Positions 21,796-59,631 are shown, counted from the first letter of the stretch. The stretch is DNA of 64,000 bases from Escherichia coli (GCF_048403405.1 NZ_CP183129.1); one strand, 5' to 3'. Notes: generated by a model from the sequence alone, not told the origin. Program-made: numbers and translations.

Positions 21796-23337
<1,542 letters not shown>

Positions 23338-31259: not shown

Positions 31260-31265
31260 TCACTT

Positions 31266-42388: not shown

Positions 42389-42508
42389 TAAATCACTCTT
42401 CATTCTGCAGGACTGCATAAAAGATGAGCCGATTCAGGCAATGTGATTTGTTGCATGCTGACTATAGTTAACATTGCGCAACATTTTTATAAGGGTACGG
42501 AGAATACC

Positions 42509-43318
42509 ATGGCAACAACACAACAATCTGGATTTGCACCTGCTGCATCGCCTCTAGCTTCGACCATCGTTCAGACCCTGGACGACGCGATTGTGGCGGG
42601 CTTCACCTCTATCCCTTCACAAGGGGATAACATGCCTGCTTACCATGCCAGACCAAAGCAAAGCGATGGCCCACTGCCAGTGGTCATTGTAGTGCAGGAA
42701 ATTTTTGGCGTGCATGAACATATTCGCGACATTTGTCGCCGTCTGGCGCTGGAGGGGTATCTGGCTATCGCACCTGAACTTTACTTCCGCGAAGGCGATC
42801 CGAATGATTTTGCCGATATCCCCACGTTGCTTAGCGGTCTGGTAGCAAAAGTGCCTGACTCGCAGGTGCTGGCCGATCTCGATCATGTCGCCAGTTGGGC
42901 TTCCCGCAACGGCGGCGATGTTCATCGTTTAATGATCACCGGATTCTGCTGGGGTGGACGTATCACCTGGCTGTATGCCGCGCATAATCCACAGCTAAAA
43001 GCCGCAGTGGCGTGGTACGGCAAACTGACGGGCGATAAGTCGCTGAATTCACCGAAACAACCTGTTGATATCGCAACCGATCTTAACGCGCCGGTTCTCG
43101 GCTTATATGGCGGCCAGGATAACAGCATTTCGCAAGAGAGCGTGGAAACGATGCGCCAGGCGCTGCGGGCAGCAAACGCGAAAGCAGAAATTATCGTGTA
43201 CCCGGATGCAGGGCATGCGTTCAACGCCGATTATCGTCCGAGCTATCATGCCGAGTCTGCGAAAGACGGCTGGCAGCGAATGTTGGAATGGTTTACACAG
43301 TATGGTGTTAAAAAGTAA
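42509..43318 (+). CDS. ysgA: dienelactone hydrolase-family protein (carboxymethylenebutenolidase-like)
   Basis: Starts MATTQQSGFAPAASPLASTIVQTLDDAIVAGF... at the ATG at 42509 with SD GGAGAA; the ORF-track start at 42443 is upstream; divergent from udp as in E. coli. Confidence 0.85.
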   Translation: MATTQQSGFAPAASPLASTIVQTLDDAIVAGFTSIPSQGDNMPAYHARPKQSDGPLPVVIVVQEIFGVHEHIRDICRRLALEGYLAIAPELYFREGDPNDFADIPTLLSGLVAKVPDSQVLADLDHVASWASRNGGDVHRLMITGFCWGGRITWLYAAHNPQLKAAVAWYGKLTGDKSLNSPKQPVDIATDLNAPVLGLYGGQDNSISQESVETMRQALRAANAKAEIIVYPDAGHAFNADYRPSYHAESAKDGWQRMLEWFTQYGVKK

Positions 43319-43574
43319 CGCCATAGTCGCTAAATCTGATGATTAAGCTCACACAATTTCAACGATTTTTTTAATCTCAAAACCATACAGCATCAAAAAA
43401 TTTGTTGCTGTATGCCACTCTTTGACTCCCTTCACATTCGTCATCACACCACCTGCTGAATGCAAAAATTTCGTTGCTGTGCGGCAAACTTTTTTCCTGT
43501 TTTGTGCCGCTTTTCTCCTGAATACTCGTTCTCAGAACAACTGGATCGTTTAAACATCAGACAGGAGATTTACC

Positions 43575-44243
43575 ATGACGCAATCCATTTTTCAGGCTCA
43601 ACCCTTTGAATTACCTTTTGATCCGCGCACAACTGCACTGGTCATGATCGACATGCAGCGTGACTTTGTCGAAGCAGGGGGCTTCGGTGAGGCACTGGGC
43701 AATGATGTTTCACTGGTACGCACGGCTATCGCACCATGTACAGAGGTGCTGGCAGCCGCACGTCAAAAAGGAATTATGGTTATTCATACTCGTGAAGGCC
43801 ATCGTGCAGACTTAAGCGACTGCCCGCCAGCCAAACTGACGCGCGGCGGAAAAACCTTTATTGGTGAACCAGGACCGATGGGACGCATTCTGGTCAGAGG
43901 TGAAGCAGGTCATGACATCATTCCTGAACTGTACCCGGTGGCAGGCGAACCGGTGATTGATAAGCCTGGCAAAGGCGCGTTTTATCAAACCGACTTACAT
44001 CTGATTTTGCAAAACCACGGTATCAAGACGCTGATAGTTTGTGGTGTAACAACCGAAGTTTGCGTAACCACCACCGTGCGCGAAGCAAATGATCGTGGCT
44101 ATGAATGCATTATCCCGGAAGATTGTGTCGGCTCCTATTTCCCGGAATTCCAGAAATACGCCCTCGAGATGATCAAAGCACAAGGTGCCATTTTCGGTTG
44201 GGTTACTGATTCCAAAGCCATTATTGCAGGTCTGGAAGGCTAA
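43575..44243 (+). CDS. isochorismatase-family cysteine amidohydrolase (RutB / biuret hydrolase / N-carbamoylsarcosine amidase-like); first gene of accessory module A
   Basis: 222 aa; SD AGGAG; VMIDMQRDF Asp motif and the C-G-V-T-T-E-V-C-V nucleophile region typical of isochorismatase-like hydrolases; exact enzyme not determinable. Confidence 0.78.
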   Translation: MTQSIFQAQPFELPFDPRTTALVMIDMQRDFVEAGGFGEALGNDVSLVRTAIAPCTEVLAAARQKGIMVIHTREGHRADLSDCPPAKLTRGGKTFIGEPGPMGRILVRGEAGHDIIPELYPVAGEPVIDKPGKGAFYQTDLHLILQNHGIKTLIVCGVTTEVCVTTTVREANDRGYECIIPEDCVGSYFPEFQKYALEMIKAQGAIFGWVTDSKAIIAGLEG

Positions 44244-44248
44244 CGCCG

Positions 44249-45109
44249 ATGGCACAGATTACGCTTTGCGCATCGTCGTTGGGATATCTTTTCCCGCAGA
44301 ATGAAACGCAAGATTTACGTCTGCATAGCGCTTTTAAACATGCGGTAAATCTGTATTCAGAAGCGGGAACATTCATCACTCTGTTGTGTGCGCAAACGTA
44401 TCTGAATCTCCCTGATGCTGCCAGAGTCTGGCTACCTGAATGTTGGGACTGGCGAAGAGAGATTGCCCATTCCGATCCCGTTCAGTTAACCCCAGGCTTA
44501 CTGCAGACACCTCGCTTTTGTGTGGCTCTCGATAACGCAACGCTCTGGCAGCCGTCATTTGTGGGAGGAAGGCTGACACTTGAGGCGTTCCCTTTGGTTT
44601 TCCAGCACTACCCAACGATGGCATCGCAACGGCTTTTATTTTGTCTGGAGCATAACGTTCAAAGCACATTGCACCTGCCGGATAGTCTCACGCACCAGGG
44701 ATTAGCGATTATGGAACATCCAGATGCGCTGGAACGCCAGGTGCCACAACTGATCGGCTTTGGTAAAGGCTTAACGCCCGATGGAGATGACTATTTGTTG
44801 GGCTATCTGGCAGCACTCTGGTTATGGCAACTCCCTGCACCACTTGCCGATCATCAATACCGGTTGCAGCAGGCAATTGATCAACATGCGCACAACACCA
44901 CGGATATCAGTCGTCATTATCTGGAGCGTGCGCTTCAGGGACATTTTTCAGAACCGATTTGCCAGTTACTCGCACAACTGGTTGGGAGCGCATCGGCAAT
45001 GACAATCGCATCCTGTGCAGAACAGGTCATGCAATTTGGCGCAACGTCAGGAGTAGATTGCCTTGCAGGAATGCTGCATGGCTTTCGAACCCTGAACACC
45101 ATGAATTGA
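44249..45109 (+). CDS. DUF2877-like protein (YahE/YlbF-type)
   Basis: 286 aa; 5 nt after the upstream stop; G-rich loop IGFGKGLTPDGDD; family assignment is by size and gene context (recalled family), not by search. Confidence 0.55.
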   Translation: MAQITLCASSLGYLFPQNETQDLRLHSAFKHAVNLYSEAGTFITLLCAQTYLNLPDAARVWLPECWDWRREIAHSDPVQLTPGLLQTPRFCVALDNATLWQPSFVGGRLTLEAFPLVFQHYPTMASQRLLFCLEHNVQSTLHLPDSLTHQGLAIMEHPDALERQVPQLIGFGKGLTPDGDDYLLGYLAALWLWQLPAPLADHQYRLQQAIDQHAHNTTDISRHYLERALQGHFSEPICQLLAQLVGSASAMTIASCAEQVMQFGATSGVDCLAGMLHGFRTLNTMN

Positions 45110-45203
45110 TTTCAACCTTTTCTCCTGTAGCTCATTTATGGCGCTACACGGGGATGCTTTGCCCGAATTTTACTATCGGGCGGAATGAAACAGGCGTAAC
45201 AGC

Positions 45204-46763
45204 ATGAAAGTTAAATATAAAGTTTTCAGTAATCTTTATCAGGACTCAGTTTCTCTGATGCAGATTTCCGCGCAAATCAGCAAGTTGCCCGGTATTCAAC
45301 AGGCCTCGGTCGTCATGGGAACACCCAATAATCTCGAACAATTGCGCGATGCGGGTCTGGGTAACGAAATCAACGCCAGTCCCAATGATTTAGTGATTGC
45401 AGTCATGGGTGAAGAAGATATTTGCAATGAAGCACTGGCACTGGCCCAGCAACGTCTGACCAGCAAACCCGATGATGAAACGGATAGTGGCATTAAAACA
45501 CCGGAAAATGTCAGCCTGGACATGGCACTGGAAGCCGAACCCGAAGCCAACCTGGCACTCATTTCTGTACCGGGAGACTACGCCGCCGCCGAAGCAATTA
45601 AAGCGTTAAACCTCGGAATGAACGTGATGATGTTCAGCGATAACGTCAGTATCGCGCAGGAAAAATCCATCAAAATACTTGCCCGAGAACGTCAGCGCAT
45701 CGTAATGGGACCTGACTGTGGAACCGCCATTGTTAACGGCATTCCGTTAGGCTTCGCTAATGTGGTGAAACGCGGAGCAATTGGTGTTATTGGCGCGTCA
45801 GGCACCGGGCTACAGGAAGTGACTTGCCGAATCGACCAGCTCGGAGCGGGTATTTCTCAGGCGCTGGGAACAGGCGGGCATGATCTCAGTGAAGAGATTG
45901 GTGGAATATCGATGCTCTTCGCTTTAGATGCGCTGGCGCAAGACGATGAAACTCGCGTAATTGTGCTGATTTCAAAACCGCCTTCACCGATCGTTGCCCG
46001 GACTATTCTGGAGCGTGCCGAGGCTTGTGGAAAACCCGTGGTGGTGAATTTCCTCGGTGCGAATCCGCATGATCTGGCACGTCCCAATATCACTGCCGCC
46101 ACCACACTTGCCAGCGCCGCCGACATCGCTGTGGCGTTACTGAATGCTCAGCCACTTCCGGCTGTCGAGACCGAGATTTCCTGCGCCGATCTCACAATGT
46201 TACAAAACGCCTGTCAGCGCCTGCCAGCCCATCGCCAGGCGATACGCGGTGTTTTCGCCGGAGGAACCTTCTGCTACGAAGCGCAACTTATCTGCCAGCA
46301 AAAGGGATTCCGCGCCGCCTCCAATACGCCAGTTGCGAGTAATCGTACTCTGGCAAATATCTGGCAAAGCGAAGATCACACGCTGATCGATATGGGCGAC
46401 GATGATTTCACCCGTGGCAAACCGCATCCAATGATCGACCCGACTCTGCGCAATCAACGTCTGCTCAACGAACTCAACGACTCACACACTGCCGTCGTGT
46501 TATTCGACCTGGTACTTGGTTATGGCGCTTCCGCTACACCTGCCAGCGAATTACTGGACCAACTTTCACACATCGACATGAATAACGCACCGTTGCTGAT
46601 TGCGCACGTTTGCGGAACGGAAGCTGATCCGCAAATACGCAGTCAGCAGATAAGCGCACTACAAAATGCGGGCATCATCATTGCCAGCAGCAATGCACAG
46701 GCGGCGCTATGGGCCAGCGTCGTTGCGCAGACTCAGTTGCAGAAAAAGGGGCTAAACGCATGA
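45204..46763 (+). CDS. FdrA-like protein (NDP-forming acyl-CoA synthetase / succinyl-CoA synthetase alpha-like fold)
   Basis: 519 aa; shares recalled FdrA blocks: QDSVSLM, LALISVPG-YAA, NVMMFSDNV, VMGPDCGT, GVIGASGTG, DMGDDDFTRGKPHPMIDPTLRNQ. Confidence 0.7.
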   Translation: MKVKYKVFSNLYQDSVSLMQISAQISKLPGIQQASVVMGTPNNLEQLRDAGLGNEINASPNDLVIAVMGEEDICNEALALAQQRLTSKPDDETDSGIKTPENVSLDMALEAEPEANLALISVPGDYAAAEAIKALNLGMNVMMFSDNVSIAQEKSIKILARERQRIVMGPDCGTAIVNGIPLGFANVVKRGAIGVIGASGTGLQEVTCRIDQLGAGISQALGTGGHDLSEEIGGISMLFALDALAQDDETRVIVLISKPPSPIVARTILERAEACGKPVVVNFLGANPHDLARPNITAATTLASAADIAVALLNAQPLPAVETEISCADLTMLQNACQRLPAHRQAIRGVFAGGTFCYEAQLICQQKGFRAASNTPVASNRTLANIWQSEDHTLIDMGDDDFTRGKPHPMIDPTLRNQRLLNELNDSHTAVVLFDLVLGYGASATPASELLDQLSHIDMNNAPLLIAHVCGTEADPQIRSQQISALQNAGIIIASSNAQAALWASVVAQTQLQKKGLNA

Positions 46764-48184
46764 ATACCTTATTTAATCAGCCTTTGAAGGTTGTGAACGC
46801 GGGACTACACAGTTTTGCTGACAATATTCAACATGCCGGGGGAAGCGCAATTGCACTCAACTGGCAGCCACCAGCACAAGGCGATATTGACGCTGGATTG
46901 GATCTGGCATCGTTGCTACGTCATCCACTGGTAGAAAATGCCAACCAAATCGCCATGACACGTTATCTCGAAGCACAGCCCGTGCTGGTAGATGTCATGC
47001 TCGCTAAAGAGGCCATTCCAGCAATGGCTGAACAAAAACGTATTTTGCACTCTGGCCCGCCGATTGCCTGGGAAGAGATGTGTGGTCCGGTAAAAGGGGC
47101 GATTATTGGTGCCATGCTGTACGAAGGTTGGGCCACCAGCCAGCAAGACGCTGAAAACCAGATAAACGCAGGCGAAATCGACCTTGCCCCTTGTCATCAT
47201 TATCACGCGGTTGGCCCAATGGCTGGCATCATCAGCCCGTCGATGCCGTTATGGGTGGTAGAAAACAAAACCAACGGCCACCGTACTTTTAGCAATTTCA
47301 ATGAAGGTCTGGGTAAGGTTCTCCGTTTTGGCGCCAATAACGATGAAGTTCTCAATCGTCTGGCCTGGATGCGCGATGAACTGGCGCCGGCAATGAAAGC
47401 AGCAATCGCACAACACGGCGAGCTGGAACTCAAGCCATTAATGGCGCAGGCGCTGCATATGGGGGATGAAGTTCATAACCGCAATGCTGCCGCTACCGGT
47501 TTGCTGATTAAGCGCCTGCTCCCGGCATTGCTGGCCTGCTCTCTTCCACAGGAACATATCCAGCGCGTCGTGGCATTTATCACCGGTAACGATCACTTCT
47601 TCCTCAATCTGTCGATGGCTGCCTGTAAAGCAATGATGGATGCCGCCGCCAATGTACCGTTCAGTTCAATGGTTACGGTGATGGCGCGTAACGGGGTGAA
47701 TTTTGGTATTCGGCTTTCCGGTACTGGCGATCGCTGGTTCCAGGCTCCTGCCAATGCCGTTGAAGGTCTGTTCTTCCCCGGATTTGGCGTTGACGACGCT
47801 GCTGCTGACCTGGGTGATAGCGCAATTACTGAAACCGCAGGTGTGGGTGGCTTCGCGATGGCGTCGTCTCCGGCGATCGTCAAATTTGTGGGAGGCACCC
47901 CTGCCGATGCCACCAATAACAGCCGTCGGATGCAAGCCATCACCCTCGGCGGTAACCCCGCATTTACACTTCCAGCCCTCAATTTTGCCCCCACCGCAGC
48001 AGGGATTGATGCGCGTAAAGTGACCGATCGCGGCATTTTACCGGTCATCAATACGGGTATCGCCCACAAACAAGCGGGGGTCGGGCAAATTGGTGCCGGG
48101 ATCACCACTGCGCCGATGGCCTGTTTTGTCGCCGCTGTACGTGCACTGGCGGAGATCGTCGCAAAGGAGAACCATCATGGTTAA
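46760..48184 (+). CDS. DUF1116-like protein (YlbE/YahG-type)
   Basis: 474 aa from MNTLFNQPLKVVNAGLHSF; ATG overlaps the upstream TGA (ATGA coupling); size and position match the YahG/YlbE partner of FdrA-like proteins (recalled). Confidence 0.6.
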   Translation: MNTLFNQPLKVVNAGLHSFADNIQHAGGSAIALNWQPPAQGDIDAGLDLASLLRHPLVENANQIAMTRYLEAQPVLVDVMLAKEAIPAMAEQKRILHSGPPIAWEEMCGPVKGAIIGAMLYEGWATSQQDAENQINAGEIDLAPCHHYHAVGPMAGIISPSMPLWVVENKTNGHRTFSNFNEGLGKVLRFGANNDEVLNRLAWMRDELAPAMKAAIAQHGELELKPLMAQALHMGDEVHNRNAAATGLLIKRLLPALLACSLPQEHIQRVVAFITGNDHFFLNLSMAACKAMMDAAANVPFSSMVTVMARNGVNFGIRLSGTGDRWFQAPANAVEGLFFPGFGVDDAAADLGDSAITETAGVGGFAMASSPAIVKFVGGTPADATNNSRRMQAITLGGNPAFTLPALNFAPTAAGIDARKVTDRGILPVINTGIAHKQAGVGQIGAGITTAPMACFVAAVRALAEIVAKENHHG

Positions 48185-49133
48185 GCCACTGGCTGTTGTC
48201 GCGGTTGGCGGCAATGCGCTCATTCAGGACGAGCAACGCAATAGTATTCCCGATCAATATGTTGCAGTGATGGAAAGCGTGCAGCATATCGTTGATATGG
48301 TTGAAGCCGGATGGGACCTGGTGCTAACCCACGGTAATGGCCCGCAGGTGGGCTTTATTCTGCGCCGCTCTGAACTCGCCAGTAACGAAGTTTCTCCGGT
48401 TCCACTTGATTACGCCGTGGGTGATACACAAGGTGCAATTGGCTACATGTTCCAGAAAGCGCTGCATTACGAATTGGCTCGCCGTGGCATAAACAAACCG
48501 GTAATTGCCCTGGTGACACAAACGCGAGTCAGCCCACATGACGATGCTTTCGCCAACCCCAGTAAACCGATTGGCGCGTTTCTCGATGAAGCAACGGCCC
48601 AACAACGCCAACAACAACTCGGCTGGACGCTGATGGAGGACGCCGGGCGTGGTTGGCGGCGTACAGTTCCCTCTCCTGCACCACTGGAAATTATTGAGCA
48701 CGACACCATCGCTCACCTGGTGCGCCAGGGATATCTGGTTATTGCCTGCGGCGGCGGCGGTATTCCGGTGGTGCGAGACGGGCAACAACTGAAAGGTGTA
48801 GAAGCCGTGATCGATAAAGATCTGGCCTCCGCGCTGCTCGCCAGTCAGTTAGGCGCAGATCTGCTGGTGATCCCCACCGGTGTAGAAAAAGTGGCGATTA
48901 ACTTTGGTACACCACAACAACAGTGGCTCGACGCTATCAGCGTTGCCGAAGCGCAAACGCTGTTGCGGGAAGGTCAGTTTGGTGTCGGCAGTATGCAACC
49001 CAAAGTGGAAGCCATTGTTGATTTCATCAATGCCAGCCAGCAACAAGGCAAACAGGCCAGCGGCCTGATTACTTCACCGCAAACCATAAAAGCAGCCCTG
49101 GCGCATCAGAGCGGTACATGGATAACCCTTTAA
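48177..49133 (+). CDS. carbamate kinase
   Basis: 318 aa from MVKPLAVVAVGGNALIQDEQ; SD AAGGAGA; carbamate/amino-acid kinase motifs VVAVGGNAL and IACGGGGIPV; start overlaps the upstream gene by 8 nt. Confidence 0.85.
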   Translation: MVKPLAVVAVGGNALIQDEQRNSIPDQYVAVMESVQHIVDMVEAGWDLVLTHGNGPQVGFILRRSELASNEVSPVPLDYAVGDTQGAIGYMFQKALHYELARRGINKPVIALVTQTRVSPHDDAFANPSKPIGAFLDEATAQQRQQQLGWTLMEDAGRGWRRTVPSPAPLEIIEHDTIAHLVRQGYLVIACGGGGIPVVRDGQQLKGVEAVIDKDLASALLASQLGADLLVIPTGVEKVAINFGTPQQQWLDAISVAEAQTLLREGQFGVGSMQPKVEAIVDFINASQQQGKQASGLITSPQTIKAALAHQSGTWITL

Positions 49134-49149
49134 ATCTCTGGAGAACACA

Positions 49150-49539
49150 ATGACTACAACGCTTTTAGCCGTTAACGGAACGCTGATGCGCGGCCTGGAA
49201 CTCAACCCAAATATGAAAAAAGCGGGCGGTATTTTTGTCCGTGAAGACCGAACTGACGCCCATTACCGGTTGTGGAGTATTAACGATCGCCATCCGGGAA
49301 TGATTCGCGTGAATGAAGGAGGAACACACGTCGACGTAGAAATTTGGCAATTACCGCTGGCCAGTTTTGCCGCTCTGTTAATGAGCGAACCCGCTGGGCT
49401 GGCAATTGGCAAAATCAAACTTGCCGATGGTAGCGAAGTGCTGGGCGTACTGGCAGAAAACTGGCTGACCGAAGGCCAACGGGAAATTACAGAACTGGGC
49501 GGCTGGCGCAAATACACCGGGCATTTTCATACTGTGTAA
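49150..49539 (+). CDS. small GGCT/AIG2-like protein (gamma-glutamyl cyclotransferase-like fold), function unknown
   Basis: 129 aa; N-terminal LLAVNGTLMRG resembles the YGSL/GTLxxG motif of AIG2/GGCT-like proteins; weak, motif-based. Confidence 0.45.
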   Translation: MTTTLLAVNGTLMRGLELNPNMKKAGGIFVREDRTDAHYRLWSINDRHPGMIRVNEGGTHVDVEIWQLPLASFAALLMSEPAGLAIGKIKLADGSEVLGVLAENWLTEGQREITELGGWRKYTGHFHTV

Positions 49540-49564
49540 CGCGCATTTATAAAGGGAACATACT

Positions 49565-50788
49565 ATGCGTAAAAAAGAAGAGAATCTGAATACGGCATCA
49601 GGATTGCGTATTGCCATGATTTTGCTGGGTATTGCCGTCACACCTGTGCTGTTGTCATCCTCAAGCCTCGGCAATCAACTTTCCAGCGGCAGTTTAATTA
49701 GCGTCGTATTGTTAGGCGGCGTCATTCTGACCTTACTTTCAGCCATCACCATTAGCGTGGGAGAAAAAGCCCGCCTGCCAACGTATGGCATTGTGAAATA
49801 TTCGTTTGGCGAAAAAGGGGCCATCGCCATTAACATTTTGATGGCGATAAGTCTGTTCGGCTGGATTGCCGTTACCGCCAATATGTTTGGTCATTCGGTA
49901 CATGACTTACTGGCTCAACATGGACTGGAAGTTCCACTGGCACTGTTAGTGGCGGCTGGCTGTGTCATTTTTGTCGCCTCTACGGCATTTGGCTTTGCCG
50001 TTCTGGGAAAAATTGCCCAGGTTGCCGTGCCGGTTATCGCGCTGGTGCTGTGTTACATCCTCTATGTGGCAACCCATACCGAAGTGGCAGTACCAGCGGC
50101 GATTGTGGAGATGAATACAGGTGTCGCCGTTTCCACCGTTGTTGGCACCATTATTGTGCTGGTTGCCACACTGCCTGATTTCGGTAGTTTTGTGCATAAC
50201 CGCAAACATGCACTGATTGCCGCAGGCGTGACGTTTCTGGTTGCCTACCCTCTGCTCTACTGGGCGGGTGCAACGCCGAGCGCCATTAGTGGTCAGGGAT
50301 CTTTACTGGGTGCGATGGCGGTATTCGGTGCGGTTCTGCCTGCGGCGCTGTTGTTGATTTTCGCCTGCGTCACCGGTAACGCGGGCAATATGTTCCAGGG
50401 CACGCTGGTGGTTTCCACACTGCTTACCCGCTTTCCCAAATGGCAGATTACCGTGGCGCTGGGTATCCTTTCCGCCATCGTAGGCAGTATGGATATTATG
50501 GCGTGGTTTATTCCGTTTCTGCTGTTCCTGGGTATCGCCACGCCACCCGTTGCCGGAATTTATATCGCTGACTTTTTCCTTTATCGCCGTAATGGCTATC
50601 AAGAGTCAGTGTTAGCCCAGGAGTCACAGATTAAAGTGCTGACATTCGCAGCATGGATCATAGGCGCAGCGGTTGGCTTTATGACCGTAAAAGGCTTATT
50701 CACCCTGACGACGATCCCTTCGGTAGACTCGATTCTGGTGGCATGTATCGCGTATGCGATTCTCAGTCGGGCAAGTCAACACCGCTAA
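49565..50788 (+). CDS. NCS1-family permease (CodB-like nucleobase/cytosine-type transporter)
   Basis: 407 aa, multi-TM; C-terminal block IPPVAGIYIADFFLYRRNGY closely resembles the recalled CodB IPPVGGVIIADYLMNRRRYE. Confidence 0.75.
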   Translation: MRKKEENLNTASGLRIAMILLGIAVTPVLLSSSSLGNQLSSGSLISVVLLGGVILTLLSAITISVGEKARLPTYGIVKYSFGEKGAIAINILMAISLFGWIAVTANMFGHSVHDLLAQHGLEVPLALLVAAGCVIFVASTAFGFAVLGKIAQVAVPVIALVLCYILYVATHTEVAVPAAIVEMNTGVAVSTVVGTIIVLVATLPDFGSFVHNRKHALIAAGVTFLVAYPLLYWAGATPSAISGQGSLLGAMAVFGAVLPAALLLIFACVTGNAGNMFQGTLVVSTLLTRFPKWQITVALGILSAIVGSMDIMAWFIPFLLFLGIATPPVAGIYIADFFLYRRNGYQESVLAQESQIKVLTFAAWIIGAAVGFMTVKGLFTLTTIPSVDSILVACIAYAILSRASQHR

Positions 50789-50865
50789 TTCCTGGGTATA
50801 CTCAGGCAATGATTACGGCTGAATCTGGAGAGATTCAGCCACTTTACCACTGACCAGGGAGCCTT

Positions 50866-51771
50866 ATGTTCATCTCAGACGAAACGCTTCGTGTTATTCA
50901 TCTGGTCGCCAGACACCAGAGCATTACCATCGCAGCCGAGCAGTTAAATAAAGTCCCTTCCGCCATCAGTTACACCATCAAGAAAGCGGAAGAGAGCCTG
51001 GGCGTTGAACTGTTCATTCGTAAGGGACGCTATATTGAATTATCGCCAGCGGGAAGTTACTTCATCGAACATAGCAAAACTATTCTTGGCGACCTGGAAG
51101 CATTAAAGCGCAACACAGTGCTGATTCACGATGGTATTGAGCGTGAACTGACAATTGCGGTAAACAATATTATTCCTGGTAATTTGCTGGTGGCATTTAT
51201 TCGAGATTTTGAACGGCAATTCACATCAACAACACTGACGGTAGATCTTGAGGTATACAACGGCTGCTGGGATGCGCTGTACAGTAAGCGTGCTGATCTG
51301 GTCTACGGTGCTCCTCATGCAGTACCAAGTAGTGAAGGCATCATTAGCGAACCGGTCGGACAAATGGAATGGGATTTTGTCGTCAGCCCACTCCACCCAC
51401 TGGCAGCGAAGCGGCATCCATTAGAAAACAGTGAATTGCGTCATTATCCAGCGGTTTGTATCCGCGATACCTCCGTTAACTTCCCCCCGATGCAAGCCTG
51501 GTTGTTGGAAGGACAAAAACCCATTTTTGTTCCTGACTTCGCTACGGCAATCGCCTTAATAGAACAAAACGTCGGTATTGGTTATATTCCACATCATCTG
51601 GCATTGCCGTTATTGAACAGCGGTAAATTGCTTAAAAAGCCAATGCGCGAACATAAACACGCCACCAAGTTATTTCTTGCCGCTCGTTCCGATGGTATGG
51701 GCAAAGCCTGTCAGTGGTGCATAGAATATTTAAGAAACCCGCAATTAATGACACGATTTGTATTTAATTGA
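50866..51771 (+). CDS. LysR-family transcriptional regulator
   Basis: 301 aa; N-terminal wHTH (SITIAAEQLNKVPSAISYTIKKAEESLGVELFIRKGR) and LysR substrate-binding domain; SD GGGAG. Confidence 0.85.
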   Translation: MFISDETLRVIHLVARHQSITIAAEQLNKVPSAISYTIKKAEESLGVELFIRKGRYIELSPAGSYFIEHSKTILGDLEALKRNTVLIHDGIERELTIAVNNIIPGNLLVAFIRDFERQFTSTTLTVDLEVYNGCWDALYSKRADLVYGAPHAVPSSEGIISEPVGQMEWDFVVSPLHPLAAKRHPLENSELRHYPAVCIRDTSVNFPPMQAWLLEGQKPIFVPDFATAIALIEQNVGIGYIPHHLALPLLNSGKLLKKPMREHKHATKLFLAARSDGMGKACQWCIEYLRNPQLMTRFVFN

Positions 51772-51970
51772 CAATACAATGATAAAAATATAAGTCTTGC
51801 TTTAATTAGAGCGCCCGTTTAAATTATTTTTGTGCAGTTGACGTAACTCATGAAAATTAACCGGTCTGTTAATCATTACGTTCACTGCACACCTTCATTT
51901 TTTCACACCTATCCACGCCTGAAAACTATGTTATAATCAGCACTTTCTGTCAGAATGAAATTTACTAATT

Positions 51971-52816
51971 ATGAATAACATAACCGTAAAAAGTCTGATT
52001 CAAAGCAATTACCCTACACTGCATCAGGCGGAAAAAAAGGTCGCCGACTATATTCTTAGCCACGCACATGAAGTCGTGAACTATAGTGTCACTGAACTAT
52101 CAGAAAAAAGCCATGCCAGTGAAGCGACTATCGTGCGCACCTGTAAGAAATTAGGTTATCAGGGTTATTACCATTTAAAAATTGCATTAGCAAAAGAAGT
52201 CATTAATCCTGACAATAGCTATCCTGATAATACCGATTTTACCGATATAACGTCGCTGGCCACATTTTTATTAAAAAAACAGGCCGAAGATTTAATACAA
52301 TCAACGCAATTTTTTAATGCCGAAGTGCTTGAGTCCATTCTCAAACTACTTGCTAATTGCGATACTATTTTCTTTTTTGCTGCCGGAAATTCAAACCCTC
52401 TGGCCGTTTATGGTGCTTATAAATTCAGCCAACTCGGATTAAAAACCGTTGTTCACGTCAGCCCGGAAATGCAAATTAATGCGGCATATTCTATGGGGAA
52501 ACGCGACCTGGCGATTGGTATTTCTAACTCTGGCAGCACCAACTTAATGGTCGATATCTTTAAAGTGGTGAAAGAGCGCGGTGCCAAATCCGTTTGTATC
52601 ACTAACTATATTAAATCTCCGTTATCAAAACTCTCCACCCATCAACTCAATACCGCGGTCAGCGATAAAATCTTCTTTGAAGCCTTCGACTCCACTCGCG
52701 TTCCGGCAATGGGCGTTATTGATATGCTGGTGCTGTTGTTTATGTATAAAAACAAGGCGCATTACGAGAAATACCGCACCCGTGAAGAGTTTCTCGGCTC
52801 CCGTTTCAAGGGGTAA
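51971..52816 (+). CDS. RpiR/MurR-family transcriptional regulator (HTH plus SIS domain)
   Basis: 281 aa MNNITVKSLIQSNYPTLHQAEKKVADYILSH...; HTH_6 then SIS sugar-phosphate-binding domain. Confidence 0.85.
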   Translation: MNNITVKSLIQSNYPTLHQAEKKVADYILSHAHEVVNYSVTELSEKSHASEATIVRTCKKLGYQGYYHLKIALAKEVINPDNSYPDNTDFTDITSLATFLLKKQAEDLIQSTQFFNAEVLESILKLLANCDTIFFFAAGNSNPLAVYGAYKFSQLGLKTVVHVSPEMQINAAYSMGKRDLAIGISNSGSTNLMVDIFKVVKERGAKSVCITNYIKSPLSKLSTHQLNTAVSDKIFFEAFDSTRVPAMGVIDMLVLLFMYKNKAHYEKYRTREEFLGSRFKG

Positions 52817-52838
52817 AAGGTCATCCTTTCACCCCTTG
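52807..52838. terminator. bidirectional stem-loop between convergent rpiR-like and transketolase genes
   Basis: CAAGGGGTAAAAGG-tcat-CCTTTCACCCCTTG (14-bp stem, one mismatch); the left arm includes the rpiR stop codon. Confidence 0.55.
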
Positions 52839-52845
52839 TGCAGGT

Positions 52846-54843
52846 TTAGCTATTCAGTAGCTCACGCGCCTGCGCCAGGACATTTTCCGGCGTAAAACCA
52901 AAGTGTTTGAACAACACATTCGCCGGAGCAGACTCACCAAAGCTCGTCATCCCAATGACTTTACCATCCAGACCGACGTAGCGTTCCCAGAATCCGGCGA
53001 TGCTGGCTTCTACCGCCAGACGTTTGCGTACAGCTTTTGGCAATACCGATTCTTTGTACGCCGCATCCTGATTATCGAAACGCTCGGTACACGGCATGGA
53101 AACTACGCGAACTTTACGCCCTTCTTCCGTTAACGCTTTTGCGGCGCTGACCACTAACTCAATCTCTGAACCCGCAGAAATGAGGATCATCTCAGGCTGA
53201 CCGTCACAATCACTCAGTACATAACCACCACGCGCAATCTCTGCCAACTGTGCAGCGGTGCGCGGCTGTTGCGCCAGCGGTTGGCGCGTTAATACCAACG
53301 ACGTTGGGCCATCTTTGCGCTCAATCGCCTGTTGCCAGGCCACCGCCACTTCCACCTGATCGCAACCGCGCCAGGTTTCCATATTCGGCGTCAGACGCAG
53401 CGACGCCAGTTGCTCAACGGGCTGATGTGTCGGGCCGTCTTCGCCCAGGCCGATGGTATCGTGGGTATAAACAAACACCGAGCGGATCTTCATCAGCGCC
53501 GCCATGCGCAGTGCATTACGCGCATATTCCATAAACATCAGGAAAGTACCGCCGTAAGGGATAAACCCACCATGCAGCGCAAGACCGTTCATGATGGCCG
53601 ACATACCAAATTCACGCACGCCATAGGAGATGTAATTCCCCGCCGGATTTTCCCCGGTGAAATCAACCGATTTCTGATGGCGAGTCAGGTTAGAGGGCGA
53701 CAAGTCCGCCGAGCCGCCCATCAGTTCCGGCAGCATATCAGCGAAGTGATTGAGGCATTTCTGGCTGACCTGACGGGTTGCCAGCGCCGCCGGATGGGAT
53801 TGCAGATCGTGCACATATTTCTGCATATTCTCGGCCCAGCCAGCAGGCAAATCACCCTTCATGCGACGAGTAAACTCCGCCGCCAGTTCCGGCCACTGCT
53901 TCGCGTAGTCAGCAAACAGTGCATCCCATTCCTGTTGAACCTGCGCGCCTTTCTCGGTCGCATCCCATTCGGCATAAATTTCACCAGGAATTTCGAAAGG
54001 GGCATACGGCCATTGCAGACGTTCACGCACCAGCGCCACTTCATCTGCACCCAGCGCCGAGCCGTGGCAATCGTGGCTGTTGGCTTTATTTGGTGAACCA
54101 AAACCGATAATCGTTTTGCAGCACAGCAGACTGGGCTTATCCGTGACGCTTTTCGCTTCACGCACCGCAGCATCTACCGCTTCTGGATCGTGACCATCAA
54201 CGCCTTCAATGACATGCCAGCCGTAGGCACGAAAACGGGCAGCCGTATCTTCAGCGAACCAGCCTTCTACGTGACCATCGATCGAAATACCGTTATCGTC
54301 CCAGATAGCAATCAGATTGCCGAGCTTCAGCGTTCCTGCAAGACCACAGGCCTCGTGGGAGATCCCTTCCATCAGGCAGCCATCACCCAAAAATAGCCAT
54401 GTGTGATGATCAACAATATTAAAGCCCGGTTTGTTAAATTCTGCCGCCAGCGCCTTCTCCGCAATCGCCATCCCCACCGCATTAGCTACGCCCTGCCCCA
54501 ACGGGCCGGTGGTGGTTTCAACACCCGGCGTATAACCATATTCTGGATGACCCGGCGTGCGGGAGTGGAGCTGACGAAAGTCGCGAATATCATCCATCGA
54601 CAGGTCGTAGCCTGTAAGATGCAGCAAAGCGTAAATCAACATGGAGCCGTGACCGTTCGACTGAACATAGCGGTCGCGGTTAAACCACTGCGGATTTTTT
54701 GGGTTATGACGCAGGTGACGACGCCAGACCACTTCGGCAATATCCGCCATCCCCATCGGCGCGCCCGGATGACCGGAGTTCGCTTTCTGGATCGCATCAA
54801 CACTTAACATTCGGATGGCATTAGCCAGTAATTGTGAATTCAT
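52846..54843 (-). CDS. transketolase (third paralogue, distinct from TktA/TktB)
   Basis: 665 aa [44 protein letters not shown]...; TPP-binding [10 protein letters not shown]; diverged from recalled TktA/TktB (identity not computed). Confidence 0.93.
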
Positions 54844-54893
54844 ACTTCAGCTCTCTCTGTCTGGCGGGCTGAAACCAGCCCGCTAATCTCGAA

Positions 54894-56402
54894 TTAGTTA
54901 GCACAGGCCACTGTCATTTCTGTCGGGCGCGGTCTGCTCATTACGGTTTTAATTTCGTCGCGCAGGATTTGCGATTTGCCGCCAAATATCACCTGTACAC
55001 CGCCATCACCCAGTTTCACTAACCCCGCAGCCCCCAACTCCTTCAGCCGTTTTTCATTCACTTTCTTATCGTCTACCAGCGCCAGCCTCAGGCGTGTTGC
55101 GCAGGCATCCACATCTTCGATATTGTCGAAACCACCTACTGCTTCGATGATTTGGTATGGACGTTCTTCGCGCGTTAATGTGGTTGCAACGGCAATCTCT
55201 TCATCCTCACGTCCCGGTGTTTTCAGATTCAACTTGCGGATCAGTACCCGAAATACGGTGTAGTAAATCGCTGCATAGCCCGCGCCTGCCAGGAACACCA
55301 GATACCACGGCGTGCGGTTTGGCATAACGCCATTCAGTACGAAATCAATAAGACCGCCAGCAAAAGGATGACCAATGTGCACATTCAGGATGTTCATCAG
55401 CACAAATGAAGTGGCATATAAGAAGATGTGAATGATGTAGAGAACCGGAGCTGCAAACAAAAATGCATATTCCAGCGGCTCCGTAATCCCGGTAACAAAT
55501 GTGGTCAGCGCACCGGAGAGTAAAAGGCCTTTAATCAGCGCCTTACGTTCCGGTTTTGCTTCCTGATACATCGCCAACGCGGCGGCAGGTAACGCAAACA
55601 TCATGATCGGGAAACGACCTGTCATAAACAGCCCCGCCGTCAACGGAACACCGTCGCGCAATTGGGCAAAGAACACCGGAATATCGCCCGTCACCAGTTG
55701 CCCGGATTTGGTCATGTAGTCGCCAAAGTTGTAATAAAACGGCACGTTCCAGATATGATGCAGGCCAAAAGGAATCAGCGAACGTTCGCCAACGGCGTAA
55801 ATAAAGGCCGCGAAGTTCGCGTTATGCCCACTGGTCACCAGCGTTGAAAGCGACGCCAGACCTTTTTGTACCGGTATCCACAGCCACGGCAATAAATAGC
55901 CGACAATAATTGCCGCCACCGCCGTAATAATCGGTACAAAGCGTTTTCCACCGAAGAAACCAAGAAACTGAGGCAATTCAATATTGTGGAAGCGGGTATA
56001 GAGCAGATAAACAAAGATGGCGACAATCAAACCGCCAAACACTCCCGTTTGTAACGTCGGTACCCCGAGGATCATCGCATAGTCACCGTTACTGGCTGCA
56101 ACGGACTCCGCGGTAATGCCAAGTTGCGTTCCCATCGTGGCATTCATGATCATGTAACTGATAATCGCTGAAAGTGATGAAGAACCATCACCTGTCAGGC
56201 CAATCACAATACCGACACAAAACAGCAAAGGAAGGTTGGCGAAAATCAGGCCGCCGCAATTCGCCAGCAGCTCAATGTTAAATGAAATCCCGATGGCTAA
56301 AATCAAACCCGCCGCCGGAAGAATGGCGATTGGTAACATCAGAGCAGAAGAAAATTTCTGCAACTTCTTGAAGTTAAACAAGGATGTTATTTTTTTGCTC
56401 AT
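54894..56402 (-). CDS. PTS glucose-family EIICB component
   Basis: 502 aa; EIIC motif GITEPLEYAF; C-terminal EIIB phospho-cysteine motif DACATRLRLALVD; SD CAGGAGAA; no EIIA domain or gene nearby. Confidence 0.9.
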   Translation of the reverse strand: MSKKITSLFNFKKLQKFSSALMLPIAILPAAGLILAIGISFNIELLANCGGLIFANLPLLFCVGIVIGLTGDGSSSLSAIISYMIMNATMGTQLGITAESVAASNGDYAMILGVPTLQTGVFGGLIVAIFVYLLYTRFHNIELPQFLGFFGGKRFVPIITAVAAIIVGYLLPWLWIPVQKGLASLSTLVTSGHNANFAAFIYAVGERSLIPFGLHHIWNVPFYYNFGDYMTKSGQLVTGDIPVFFAQLRDGVPLTAGLFMTGRFPIMMFALPAAALAMYQEAKPERKALIKGLLLSGALTTFVTGITEPLEYAFLFAAPVLYIIHIFLYATSFVLMNILNVHIGHPFAGGLIDFVLNGVMPNRTPWYLVFLAGAGYAAIYYTVFRVLIRKLNLKTPGREDEEIAVATTLTREERPYQIIEAVGGFDNIEDVDACATRLRLALVDDKKVNEKRLKELGAAGLVKLGDGGVQVIFGGKSQILRDEIKTVMSRPRPTEMTVACAN

Positions 56403-56443
56403 TTTTATTCTCCTGTAGGGTATCGAGCAAATAACGGCGACGA

Positions 56444-57001
56444 CTATTCCAGATTGGCGTGGCGCTTAAACAGTTCACTTTCCGGCGCACCACTTTCAGC
56501 AGCCATCTTCATCACTAATGCATCGGCAATCACCAGCAAAGCTTGCTCATACAACGACGCCATCGGCTGTGCCGAGCGGAAAACAGAATCTTTTTGATTT
56601 TTGGAAGGGGCATTGATTTGCACGATGACGTCGACAAACTCGGTGATAGTGGCGTGTCGATTCGTGGTTAACACCGCCACAGCGCCGCCAAGCTGACGTG
56701 CTTTTTTCGCCAGTGCCACCAGTTGTGCTGTCTCACCGGAAGCGGAAGAAACGATAAACAGATCGCCAGGCCCAAAGTTCGGCGTAATGGTTTCCGTCAG
56801 AAAGTAAACCTCTTTTCCCATATGCATCAGGCGCATGGTGAAGGCTTTCATGGAAAAGCCGGCGCGTCCCAGGCCATAGCAGAAAACGCGCTGGCTTTGC
56901 TGAATAGCGTCGATCAATTTGGTGCAGTCATCCTCACGGATAGAGTCCTTAACGAAGGTTAATTCATTGATGATCTCAGTGATGTACAGCTTTGCGTCCA
57001 T
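56444..57001 (-). CDS. SIS-domain sugar-phosphate isomerase (6-phospho-3-hexuloisomerase-like)
   Basis: 185 aa from MDAKLYITEIINELTFVKD (SD AGGTG upstream; the alternative start at 57013 adds 4 aa); single SIS domain with GLGRAG and SSASGET motifs. Confidence 0.72.
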   Translation of the reverse strand: MDAKLYITEIINELTFVKDSIREDDCTKLIDAIQQSQRVFCYGLGRAGFSMKAFTMRLMHMGKEVYFLTETITPNFGPGDLFIVSSASGETAQLVALAKKARQLGGAVAVLTTNRHATITEFVDVIVQINAPSKNQKDSVFRSAQPMASLYEQALLVIADALVMKMAAESGAPESELFKRHANLE

Positions 57002-57008
57002 TTCACAC

Positions 57009-57214
57009 CTCATGAAATAATTTTCTCAAACACAAAATCTCATGAAATTTTATTTCATTCCAATGCATCAGTATGAAATGTGAAGCTAGTCACAAGAAAG
57101 ATCATAGGTTGATATGTTTTTCATTAAAAAACATATAGATATCAAGTAATTTTTAATATGTGATGGAGAGGCAGATAGAAAAAATGGCGGAAATGACGAA
57201 ATTTATTTCATGAG
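57009..57214 (-). promoter_or_regulatory. control region of the SIS-PTS-transketolase operon: consensus CRP site (TGTGAAGCTAGTCACA, 57078-57093) and repeated CTCATGAAAT motifs (57009-57018, 57039-57048; inverted copy 57205-57214)
   Basis: Motifs read directly in a ~290-bp AT-rich spacer upstream of the first operon gene; a possible -10 TAAAAT on the minus strand at 57052-57047. Confidence 0.55.
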
Positions 57215-57309
57215 AAGGGAATAAAGAAGATTTTCTTAAACAGGGTATGAACTGATATCTGGAATGGTTTACGCAGTATGCTGGGAAGACGTCGCTGTAA
57301 TGAGAAAAG

Positions 57310-57332
57310 ACCGGGTGGTATTACCACCCGGT
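57310..57332 (-). terminator. metE terminator hairpin (probably bidirectional)
   Basis: ACCGGGTGG-tatta-CCACCCGGT, 8 nt after the metE stop, followed by a T-rich run on both strands. Confidence 0.6.
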
Positions 57333-57339
57333 TTGGATT

Positions 57340-59601
57340 TTACCCCCGACGCAAATTCTGCGCCGCCTGCACCATGTTCGCCAGTGCCGCGCGAGTTTCT
57401 GGCCAGCCGCGCGTTTTCAGGCCACAGTCCGGGTTGACCCACAGACGCTCTGCCGGAATGCGTTTTGCCGCTTTCTTCAGCAAGGCTTCAATCCATTCCA
57501 CGCTCGGTACGTTTGGCGAGTGAATGTCATAGACGCCAGGACCGATTTCATTTGGATAATCAAACTCTTCAAACGACTCCAGCAACTCCATGTCGGAACG
57601 CGAGGTTTCGATGGTGATGACGTCTGCGTCCAGCGCCGCAATCGAATCCATGATGTCGTTGAACTCGCAGTAACACATGTGAGTGTGGATTTGTGTGTCA
57701 TCTTTCGCCACGGCGGCGTTGATACGGAAAGCCTCTACGCCCCACTGGAGATATGCATCCCAGTCGCTACGACGCAGCGGTAAACCTTCGCGCAGCGCCG
57801 GTTCATCAATCTGAATGATGCCAATTCCAGCGGCTTCCAGGTCCGCGACTTCATCACGCAGCGCCAGCGCAATTTGTTTGGCGATGGTTTCACGGCTGAC
57901 ATCTTCACGCGGGAACGACCAGCAGAGAATGGTCACTGGGCCAGTCAGCATCCCTTTCACCGGTTTATCAGTCAGCGATTGCGCATACTTCGCCCACTCC
58001 ACGGTAATCGGTGCCGGGCGGCTAACGTCACCAATAACAATCGGTGGCTTCACGCAGCGGGAACCGTAGCTCTGTACCCAACCGTTTTGCGTAAAGACAA
58101 AGCCATCCAGATGCTCGCCAAAGTATTCCACCATGTCATTACGCTCGGCCTCGCCATGTACCAGCACATCCAGTCCCAAACGTTCCTGCTCAACAATGGC
58201 CTGCTTGATATGTTCCGCAATGCCCGTGCGGTAGTTGTTAGCGTCGAGATTACCCTTTTTAAAATCCAGACGCAGGGTACGAATCTCCGTGGTTTGCGGG
58301 AAGGAACCAATCGTGGTGGTCGGCCACGCGGGCAGTTTAAAACGCGCACGCTGGGCTTCAGCACGCACTTCATAGACATTCGCACGCTGACTGTCCTGGG
58401 CGGTGATCGCCGCCAGACGCTTTTCTACTGCCGGATTATGAACACGAGTAGAGTGACGACGCGCCTGAATCGGAGCGCTCCACTCTGCCAGAGCAGCCGT
58501 GTCACCACTGTTCAGCGCATCGCGCAGCAGTGCCAGTTCATGACATTTTTGCAGGGCGAAGGCAAACCAGCTTTTCACTTCTGCATCAAGACGCGTTTCC
58601 ACGCTCAGGTCGATGGGGCTGTGCAGCAGTGAGCAGGAAGATGCCACCCACAAATCGCGTTTGCCGACAATGTCCTTAATTTGCGCATACTTCTCGGTAA
58701 GATCGGCGCGCCAGACGTTACGACCATTGATCAGACCCGCAGACAGTAGCCAGTCAGAAGGCAGACGCTTGTGCAGTTCAGCAACGTCATCTTTACCATG
58801 TACAAGGTCCACATGCAGCCCCTGAACAGGCAGCGCAGTAATCGTGTCGAGATTTGGCGTTACGCCTTCAAAATAGGTAGTCAGCAGCAGTTTCACCTGG
58901 CCCTGAAGCGCGTCGTAAGCGGGTTTGTATGCGTCCAGCCACGCCTGCGGTAGTTCCAGTACCAGTGCGGGTTCGTCGATCTGTACCCACTCAATGCCGC
59001 GTTTTGCCAGTTCTGCCAGTACTTGCTGATAAACCGGCAGAATGTCGTTTAGCAGGCTCAGGCGGTCAAACTGTTCACCTTTCACTTTCCCAAGCCATAG
59101 GTAGGTAACCGGCCCCAGCAGCACAGGTTTCACCTTGTGGCCCAGCGCCAGCGCCTCGTCCACTTCCTCCAGCAGCTGCGTCCAGGTCAGTTTGAACTGC
59201 TGGCCTTTAACGAACTCCGGCACCATGTAGTGATAGTTGGTGTTAAACCATTTGGTCATTTCCGCTGCCGCCGCAGGTTCGCCAGTCGGCGCACGTCCAC
59301 GACCAATACGGAACAGGGTGTCGATATCTACCGAACCATCTTTGTTCTGATGACGTGGCGGAACATTACCCAGCAGCAGACTGGTGGTCAGTACATGATC
59401 GTACCAGGCAAAATCGCCCACCGGCAGCAGGTCGATACCCGCCTGCTTTTGTTGATCCCAGTGACGGGCACGCAGTTCACGCCCTACTGCCAGCAGTTCT
59501 TCACGCGTGGAGTTCCCCGCCCAATAACTCTCTTGCGCTTTTTTCAGCTCGCGACGCAGGCCAACGCGAGGGAAACCGAGGGTGTGATTAAGAATTGTCA
59601 T
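57340..59601 (-). CDS. metE: cobalamin-independent methionine synthase
   Basis: 753 aa [48 protein letters not shown]... Confidence 0.97.
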
Positions 59602-59631
59602 TATATGCCCCTTATGGAATTTTTAGTATTT

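Follow-up and report, generated by a model that had tools for sequence, protein, structure and literature searches.

The segment between ysgA and metE in an Escherichia coli chromosome is the tkt1 genomic island, with two metabolic cassettes at a recurrent insertion site

INTRODUCTION

What separates ysgA from metE in some Escherichia coli chromosomes, and how did it come to be there? The stop codons of these two genes are 39 bp apart in K-12 BW25113. We analyzed a 64,000-nucleotide stretch of E. coli DNA (GCF_048403405.1, NZ_CP183129.1; hereafter the window, with positions counted from its first nucleotide) in which, by the open reading frame (ORF) list, ysgA stops at 43,318 and metE, on the minus strand, at 57,340. 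Our reference set for all E. coli counts was 5,426 complete E. coli genomes, and a megablast search of this set found a 100% identical match over positions 42,000 to 59,700 in NZ_CP128875.1 (strain TUM14771). The annotation of that genome has 12 genes between ysgA and metE, at 43,319 to 57,300. A preliminary description of the window, made from the sequence alone, had proposed an accessory insertion of 12 genes in two modules that is missing in K-12, and both the annotation and the K-12 gap bear this out.

RESULTS

The segment is the tkt1 genomic island

Because its location, gene list, and absence from K-12 match published descriptions, we identify the 14-kb segment that separates ysgA from metE as the tkt1 genomic island described in extraintestinal pathogenic E. 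coli (ExPEC); it is real and was already known, which the preliminary description had not recognized. Li et al. (2012, BMC Microbiol 12:51; PMC3349570) described this island between metE and ysgA, found it absent from K-12, and associated it with phylogroup B2 ExPEC. The same region was listed again in 2026 as GR29 (metE..ysgA) of BEN2908 (PLoS One; PMC12928451). In addition to the site and the absence from K-12, the window has all the genes named for the island: tkt1, a phosphotransferase system (PTS) IIBC component, a sugar isomerase, two regulators, a permease, a carbamate kinase, and an FdrA-like cluster. Both the island of Li et al. and that in the window are without mobility genes. The island of avian pathogenic E. 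coli (APEC) O1 is 16 kb long with 15 ORFs, whereas the window has a shorter variant of 14 kb and 12 genes, which we found in 672 genomes. By position and size, the three extra metE-proximal ORFs of APEC O1 correspond to a module with tssD (Hcp) that is absent from the window; in its place, the window has a 143-bp spacer and a 42-bp ysgA stub. The window thus holds this island in its 14-kb form without tssD, as two non-mobile metabolic cassettes (modules 1 and 2) at a recurrent insertion hotspot between ysgA and metE. On this reading as a whole, with the route of acquisition and the functions proposed below, we put a probability of roughly three in four.

We detected no integrase or transposase in the annotation of the island in NZ_CP128875.1, and no mobility genes are annotated in any of the site variants compared. 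The nearest tRNA gene is 21.5 kb from the island, and the only two tRNA genes in the window both lie within an rRNA operon. The preliminary description had stated that no integrase, transposase, or tRNA flanks the segment, that a metE terminator hairpin lies at 57,310 to 57,332, and that the internal spacers are AT-rich; all three statements hold, the hairpin having a 10-bp stem with 7 G-C pairs and the spacers GC contents of 39.8%, 32.7%, and 28.8% (Table 1).

The site occurs in five states, and the modules also occur elsewhere

The site was seen in five states. It is empty in K-12, holds module 1 alone in strain 1428 and E. coli B, and holds tssD alone in strain 746; the other two states are modules 1 and 2 without tssD and modules 1 and 2 with it. 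The window represents type A, in which modules 1 and 2 are followed by a K-12-like metE flank; the junction of this type is present in 672 genomes, including sequence type 131 (ST131). Type B, represented by CFE299, combines modules 1 and 2 with tssD/Hcp and differs from type A in its 104-bp metE flank and in the stop codon of metE; query coverage places Nissle 1917 and NC101 in this type. The third cargo consists of a 1,134-bp gene of the tssD (Hcp) family and two small hypothetical genes (locus L004, 1809 to 4093; locus L005, 15785 to 17857). It carries its own 104-bp metE-proximal flank, together with another terminator and TGA as the stop codon of metE, and is found alone or with modules 1 and 2.

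In total, module 1 is present in 1,554 of the 5,426 genomes (29%), at approximately 1,502 chromosomal and 129 plasmid places. Module 2 is present in 1,133 genomes, always together with module 1. The presence/absence survey that the preliminary description had called for gave at least 80% of the region in 1,133 genomes, with ST131, UTI89, Nissle 1917, and NC101 among the carriers. By subtraction, approximately 460 genomes have type B, and approximately 370 have a chromosomal module 1 without module 2.

Modules 1 and 2 are separable units that also occur elsewhere. Module 1 has the same pair of ends, 43,306 and 51,749, in its chromosomal form, in strain 1428, and in the copy of a 194-kb APEC plasmid (93.4% identity). 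Homologues of its first gene, at 80 to 88% identity, are found in many Gamma- and Betaproteobacteria, and the same eight genes stand in the same order in unrelated neighborhoods in Enterobacteriaceae bacterium Kacie_13, Edwardsiella hoshinae, and Caballeronia; nucleotide homology with Edwardsiella covers 43,349 to 51,732. The four genes of module 2 (51,968 to 57,062) recur in Klebsiella pneumoniae at approximately 75% nucleotide identity, and the neighbors of module 2 in Serratia and Klebsiella are genes of the Gfo/Idh/MocA oxidoreductase, sugar-isomerase, and glycerate-kinase types.

Two neighborhoods of module 1 deserve description. On the APEC plasmid pEND_Eco 19035-1, direct repeats of 136 nt (locus L006, 7609 to 7744 and 16295 to 16430) bracket the module; they are 97% identical and 8,686 bp apart. 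In PLSDB, this repeat occurs only on plasmids with module 1 (86 records, all conjugative, mostly with two copies, including those of APEC IMT5155 and APEC O2-211), also when we searched there for a single-copy "empty site", and an Rfam scan of the repeats gave no match. In Kacie_13 (locus L088, 1 to 9769), the cassette stands directly downstream of genes for a 1,210-residue protein of the urea carboxylase type, a GntR regulator, and an ATP-binding cassette transporter, a neighborhood that fits a connection with allophanate or with compounds derived from urea.

The empty site is ancestral

We scanned species-representative genomes for YsgA and obtained 80 Enterobacterales loci, 65 of which also contain metE downstream of ysgA. 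The gap between the two genes is 150 bp or less in 37 of these species, 151 to 500 bp in 10, and 0.5 to 6.8 kb in 18, and neither module 1 nor module 2 lies between ysgA and metE in any of the 65. Given that the gap does not exceed 500 bp in 47 of 65 species and that the cassettes are missing from it in all 65, the empty site is ancestral. The preliminary description had offered, as one possibility, an ancestral locus deleted in K-12-like strains, and this survey argues against that idea. In many genera the site is a recurrent insertion point, a hotspot that extends across the Enterobacterales. In E. albertii the gap is 221 bp; it contains a repetitive element of approximately 150 bp (locus L008, 10846 to 10992) between two copies of a terminator-like hairpin, and this element resembles positions 5,434 to 5,567 (78% identity) and 31,265 to 31,299 of the window.

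The comparison of composition with core genes that the preliminary description had suggested gave a divided answer: the island deviates, but only mildly. Its GC content is 50.25%, versus 51.8% for the rest of the window; GC at third codon positions is 0.517 in island genes and 0.588 in their neighbors (p = 4e-4); and codon adaptation to the neighboring core genes is 0.621 versus 0.674 (p = 0.004). The most deviant genes are those of the regulators (RpiR, 41% GC; LysR, 46%). These statistics leave out 14 genes at positions 1 to 18,130, beyond the rRNA operon. The gene coordinates of NZ_CP128875.1 give intact frames from 23,715 on and none for those 14 genes, a mismatch from which it follows that the window and NZ_CP128875.1 differ in length somewhere in 18,131 to 23,714.

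A divergent ysgA end and a ysgA stub flank the island

Compared with K-12, the window has 6 differences in the 800 bp from 42,308 to 43,107 (0.75%) and 24 in the next 200 bp, from 43,108 to 43,307 (12%; Fisher p = 1e-12), and the same step is seen against strain 746. Because of this step, we place the start of the imported tract approximately 210 bp inside ysgA: the last ~210 bp of the gene were imported together with module 1. The divergent ysgA end and the start of module 1 are found together, at 96% identity or more, in 1,499 genomes, compared with the approximately 1,502 chromosomal places of module 1, and a partial match to this segment occurs in only 19 other genomes. Three carriers that we compared base by base all have the same ysgA tail and module 1 start. 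The left junction is constant, and there are at least three right junctions. The preliminary description had put the left junction directly after the ysgA stop; the cassette in fact starts at 43,306, in the last ysgA codons, and the imported tract at ~43,100.

Among the species representatives, the nearest relatives of the imported ysgA end are in Escherichia, yet it is only 88 to 90% identical to the E. coli and E. albertii representatives; identity to Citrobacter is 81%. The functional YsgA of the window ends in ...QYGVKK-stop, and those of Citrobacter and most relatives end in ...QYGGKK-stop. We rejected the idea that the new tail is random junction sequence, given that ...KK-stop is the common enterobacterial YsgA end.

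On the right, the preliminary description had placed the junction at the hairpin; it lies at 57,258/57,259, 42 bp before the old ysgA stop (57,300). The earlier statement that there are no obvious direct repeats also fails, as 33 nt at 82% identity flank the island, with a 24-nt core that has 2 mismatches; no such repeat arose in 100 shuffles. Li et al. likewise reported no flanking direct repeats, but in the commonest arrangement this is not so. The right copy of the repeat precedes GGGAAGACGTCGCTGTAA and the K-12 terminator. Because it continues into these, we identify the 42 bp as a remnant of an Escherichia-type ysgA 3' end, a stub of the old gene end left at the right junction. It encodes ...GKTSL-stop, of the Escherichia type; K-12 and E. 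albertii have GGKKSL-stop. We saw no recombination breakpoint in metE, which differs by approximately 3% between all strains in a mosaic pattern, and no convincing terminal inverted repeats of module 1.

Table 1. Features of the island and its junctions, in window coordinates
Feature	Position	Strand	Evidence or remark
Imported divergent ysgA 3' end	43108..43318	+	Ends ...QYGVKK-stop, common enterobacterial tail type
Flanking imperfect direct repeat, left copy	43284..43316	+	Tail of functional ysgA
Flanking imperfect direct repeat, right copy	57260..57292		
Module 1, 8-gene cassette	43306..51749	+	Ends alike on chromosome, in module-1-only strains, and on APEC plasmids
AT-rich promoter/operator spacer	43319..43574	+	GC 39.8%; motifs conserved in enterobacterial cassettes (five-cassette alignment)
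Isochorismatase-family cysteine hydrolase, TrtA (triuret hydrolase)/BiuH-like	43575..44243	+	
AllH-like subunit (formerly DUF2877)	44249..45109	+	Pfam PF11392 AllH, E = 5e-27; 26% identical to YahE and AllH
AllF/FdrA-like subunit	45204..46763	+	NCBIfam NF004760, 497 bits (cut-off 433); 42% identity to YahF, 41% to AllF
AllG-like subunit (formerly DUF1116)	46760..48184	+	Pfam PF06545 AllG, E = 9e-99; 46% identity to YahG, 49% to AllG
Carbamate kinase	48177..49133	+	TIGR00746, 365.8 bits (cut-off 358); 48% identity to YahI, 39% to AllK
Stand-alone AH_C homologue (allophanate hydrolase C-terminal domain), 129 residues	49150..49539	+	
NCS1-family permease, annotated 'cytosine permease'	49565..50788	+	CodB model, 145.7 bits, under cut-off 326
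LysR-type regulator, PunR/AllS-like	50866..51771	+	Family matches
AT-rich spacer between modules	51750..51970		Overlaps LysR gene end, upstream of RpiR gene; GC of 51,772-51,970 = 32.7%
MurR/RpiR-family regulator	51971..52816	+	Annotation and family match
Transketolase Tkt1	52846..54843	-	TIGR00232, 1009 bits (cut-off 682); gene described by Li et al. 2012
PTS IIBC component, glucose family, without IIA domain	54894..56402	-	TIGR02002, 608.6 bits (cut-off 591.8)
SIS-domain 6-phospho-3-hexuloisomerase-like protein (HxlB-like)	56444..57001	-	TIGR03127, 205 bits (cut-off 160)
AT-rich promoter region/right-end spacer of module 2	57002..57258		GC 28.8%
Remnant of recipient's original ysgA 3' end, 42 bp	57259..57300	+	Encodes ...GKTSL-stop
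metE terminator hairpin	57310..57332	-	10-bp stem, 7 G-C pairs; common to K-12

Module 1 may encode ureide catabolism

The genes of module 1 suggest a pathway of ureide catabolism that would yield ATP. The NCS1 permease would import a ureide, under the control of the LysR regulator on the operon, and the TrtA-like cysteine hydrolase would deamidate it. The AllFGH-type transcarbamoylase would then use phosphate to split the N-acylurea so formed, releasing carbamoyl phosphate, which the carbamate kinase would turn into ATP, NH3, and CO2. As the substrate, we favor triuret or a related polyureide; triuret arises by oxidation of uric acid and is found in human urine (PMC7948467).

The first enzyme is informative about the substrate. 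Against the Protein Data Bank (PDB), it scores 270.6 bits with TrtA (6XIX; 58.7% identity), 237.5 with BiuH (6AZO; 53.5%), and 105 with RutB; against NCBIfam, it scores 279.8 bits with the BiuH model (NF050097), under the equivalog cut-off of 370, and 112 with RutB. Our alignment shows conservation of each of the 15 residues that PMC7948467 names for TrtA. Its D26, K130, C163, and V158-T159 align with D24, K129, C162, and V157-T158 of TrtA (the D-K-C triad and the cis-peptide V-T). At the six positions that differ in Rhizobium BiuH (F35, N41, A134, E160, Y187, and I205), it is of the TrtA type throughout; the residues of BiuH 6AZO there are Y, Y, S, D, T, and V.

The AllF-like and carbamate kinase genes exceed curated NCBIfam cut-offs, and three subunits of the AllF, AllG, and AllH families are encoded together with the carbamate kinase. 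AllFGH of K-12 has been shown experimentally to be an oxalurate-phosphorolysing transcarbamoylase, with AllK as a catabolic carbamate kinase (PMC11326118, PMC9843812). Because the module 1 subunits are only 26 to 49% identical to both the All and the Yah paralogues, we regard them as a third system. In nitrifiers, trtA/biuH is co-located with allFGHK and codB (PMC12625717). We therefore advance, as a tentative proposal with the odds against it, that module 1 is an energy-conserving pathway for triuret-type polyureides, in which the TrtA-like hydrolase feeds a third, substrate-distinct AllFGH-type transcarbamoylase and a carbamate kinase.

Several observations weigh against this proposal. The cassette of E. 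coli has no BiuH, AtzF, or TrtB partner, and the three other taxa examined have no biuH or atzF in theirs; the hydrolase falls under the BiuH equivalog cut-off; AllH and the AllH-like subunit share only 26% identity; and, as a weakness of the scheme itself, the proposed pathway gives the AH_C protein no role. This protein aligns only to the C-terminal domain of the allophanate hydrolase model (positions 472 to 595 of 600). Its residues 1 to 129 match PDB 5C5Z (E = 2.5e-84), the solved structure of c4763, which a citing paper terms "a uropathogenic E. coli-specific protein."

Another explanation is that module 1 serves pyrimidine (Rut-like) or oxalurate/allantoin salvage, as a redundant copy of known E. 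coli routes. The authors of PMC12928451, who noted that GR29 genes are similar to genes of Photobacterium profundum, proposed acquisition of pyrimidine-derived nitrogen from similarity to RutB and CodB, and the AllF/G/H and carbamate kinase homologues together with the AllS-like LysR point to ureide metabolism of the allantoin type. However, the hydrolase is much closer to TrtA and BiuH than to RutB in the scores above, the cassette has no RutA-type or other Rut gene and no allB, allC, allD, or allE in any species examined, and a different substrate would agree with the subunits' identity of only 26 to 49% to the two sets of K-12 paralogues. We consider salvage an unlikely function for the module.

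Upstream of the first module 1 gene, two mutually related motifs, CATCAAAAAATTTGTTGCT and TGCAAAAATTTCGTTGCTGTGCGGC, lie at 43385 to 43412 and 43460 to 43490. Both recur in conserved form in the cassettes of the plasmid, Edwardsiella, and Kacie_13, and the first sits within the dyad ATACAGCA...TGCTGTAT; these motifs may be binding sites for the LysR regulator. The last ~7 codons of the LysR gene lie past the cassette end, and the gene has three different 3' ends depending on its context.

Module 2 may encode sugar uptake

Module 2 appears suited to PTS sugar uptake: the PTS would take up a hexose-like sugar, to be processed by the isomerase and then Tkt1, under RpiR control. Tkt1, the PTS IIBC component, and the HxlB-like protein each exceed the cut-offs of curated models, and the Klebsiella homologue of the HxlB-like protein, in the same four-gene cassette, is 80% identical. 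Nucleotide homology of Klebsiella to module 2 ends on the left at 51,968; on the right, positions 57,116 to 57,258 are specific to the type A arrangement. We found no hxlA in the island or in the Klebsiella and Serratia cassettes. Li et al. (PMC3349570) tied tkt1 to the use of dipeptide nitrogen and found little transketolase activity; the reading of module 2 as a sugar module does not predict this phenotype, which counts against it.

Upstream of the hxlB-like operon there are three copies of the motif TCATGAAAT (57010 to 57018, 57040 to 57048, and 57205 to 57213), with 0.8 occurrences expected in the whole window. Two of the copies lie within a 24-nt inverted repeat pair (57,002 to 57,025 and 57,198 to 57,221), and comparable TTTCATGA motifs stand upstream of the Klebsiella homologue. 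The repeated motif may be an operator for the RpiR regulator.

Other differences in the flanks

Elsewhere in its flanks, the window differs from other E. coli genomes at two places. In the E. coli B strain C2566, rmuC and udp are parted by a further islet of 5.5 kb (locus L100, 4861 to 10300), with genes for an IclR regulator, a 2-dehydro-3-deoxygalactonate kinase and aldolase, and a tripartite tricarboxylate transporter; the window is without this islet, and rmuC and udp adjoin at 41,345/41,486. The metE-metR intergenic region of the window (59603 to 59628) is 26 bp long, compared with ~145 bp in K-12 (locus L002, 4128 to 4272), and this indel of ~119 bp splits E. coli genomes into two classes in BLAST piece counts.

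DISCUSSION

The anatomy of the junctions suggests how the island was acquired. Donor DNA comprising a ysgA 3' end, module 1, and module 2 would have entered by a homologous crossover within ysgA near 43,100, and its far end would have joined illegitimately 42 bp before the ysgA stop of the recipient, a join that we infer. Such homology-facilitated illegitimate recombination would explain the imperfect flanking repeat without an integrase. The preliminary description had named homologous recombination as a possible route, and the sharp divergence step inside ysgA favors it.

Some observations sit less easily with this scheme. No donor with ysgA (...VKK-stop), module 1, and module 2 was found, in a species-representative scan that covered two Escherichia species. 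Only type A, with its 672 genomes, has the ysgA stub, and type B and the strains with module 1 only have the different 104-bp metE flank. The states of the site may thus reflect one integration or several, in more than one possible order.

We considered whether the island could instead be a degenerate site-specific integrative element that has lost its integrase, with the ysgA 3' end as its target, the 24-bp repeat as the core of its attachment site, and a replacement gene end supplied by the element. An imperfect direct repeat and a replaced target 3' end are both typical of integrative islands, and the Klebsiella copy of module 2 adjoins a phage-integrase gene. However, none of the five site states has an integrase, an excisionase, or a fragment of one; the divergent tract extends ~175 bp further upstream than the repeat, a pattern that a homologous crossover predicts and an attachment-site core does not; the repeat is absent from type B and from the arrangement with module 1 only; and the same cassette stands at unrelated, integrase-free sites in other genera. 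For these reasons, we judge an integrase-mediated event very improbable. Least credible of all is a locus already present in the E. coli ancestor and lost from K-12-like lineages, perhaps via the flanking repeats: although the island diverges between lineages by ~1%, a level that would suit old E. coli DNA, its composition is only mildly atypical, and the repeats could in principle mediate loss, the short-gap species without cassettes include both E. albertii and Citrobacter, the stub shows insertion into an intact ysgA end, the 12% step marks imported DNA, and the empty-site tail of the K-12 type (...AAG CAG...GGT GGG AAG AAG...) is not the hybrid expected from repeat-mediated excision.

The island is a published ExPEC marker, and finding it again adds little. 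The additions made here are modest: the junction scar and divergence step, a quantified modular distribution, the copies on plasmids and across genera, and the triuret-type hypothesis. The junction anatomy offers a concrete mechanism by which DNA may have been acquired without an integrase at a hotspot found throughout the Enterobacterales. Module 1 is a compact, widely transferred cassette whose first enzyme looks like a triuret hydrolase and not, as was proposed in 2026, like RutB. If the hypothesis is true, urease-negative ExPEC and APEC would have a source of both nitrogen and ATP, whether in urine or in avian hosts rich in uric acid, and a triuret-type cassette would have spread over Gamma- and Betaproteobacteria and onto APEC virulence plasmids. 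This gives a testable substrate hypothesis for a gene set carried by 29% of complete E. coli genomes, and because E. coli B (the BL21 lineage) has module 1 alone, it can be tested in an ordinary laboratory strain.

Comparison with known catabolic systems shows how each module differs from its relatives. AllFGH with AllK of K-12 and the paralogous yahEFGI have the same three subunit families beside a carbamate kinase and a LysR gene nearby, as in module 1. The order of the all cluster is F-G-H-K and that of module 1 H-F-G-K, and in place of the allantoin genes of the all cluster, none of which lies near the module 1 cassette, module 1 has the TrtA/BiuH-like hydrolase, the AH_C protein, and the NCS1 permease. 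With the TrtA-BiuH-AtzF pathway of Herbaspirillum sp. BH-1 and Rhizobium leguminosarum, module 1 shares a first gene whose product keeps the catalytic triad and substrate-binding residues of TrtA and a domain like the allophanate hydrolase C terminus; instead of BiuH, an amidase-type allophanate hydrolase, and TrtB, it has the AllFGH-like phosphorolytic enzyme and a carbamate kinase. The ribulose monophosphate pathway pairs HxlB with HxlA, whereas module 2 has an HxlB-like protein without HxlA.

As an acquired element, the island matches a classical pathogenicity island or integrative element in its flanking direct repeat (24 to 33 nt, imperfect), which is best read as a duplicated ysgA end and not as an attachment site, and weakly in its deviant base composition; it lacks the mobility gene and the tRNA-adjacent insertion of such elements. 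Homology-facilitated illegitimate recombination has been described for natural transformation in Acinetobacter, Pseudomonas stutzeri, and the pneumococcus; E. coli is not naturally transformable in the classical sense. The window matches this process in its one-sided homology with ysgA as the anchor, its sharp divergence step, and its non-homologous far end, and the site as a whole combines an invariant left junction with at least three right junctions.

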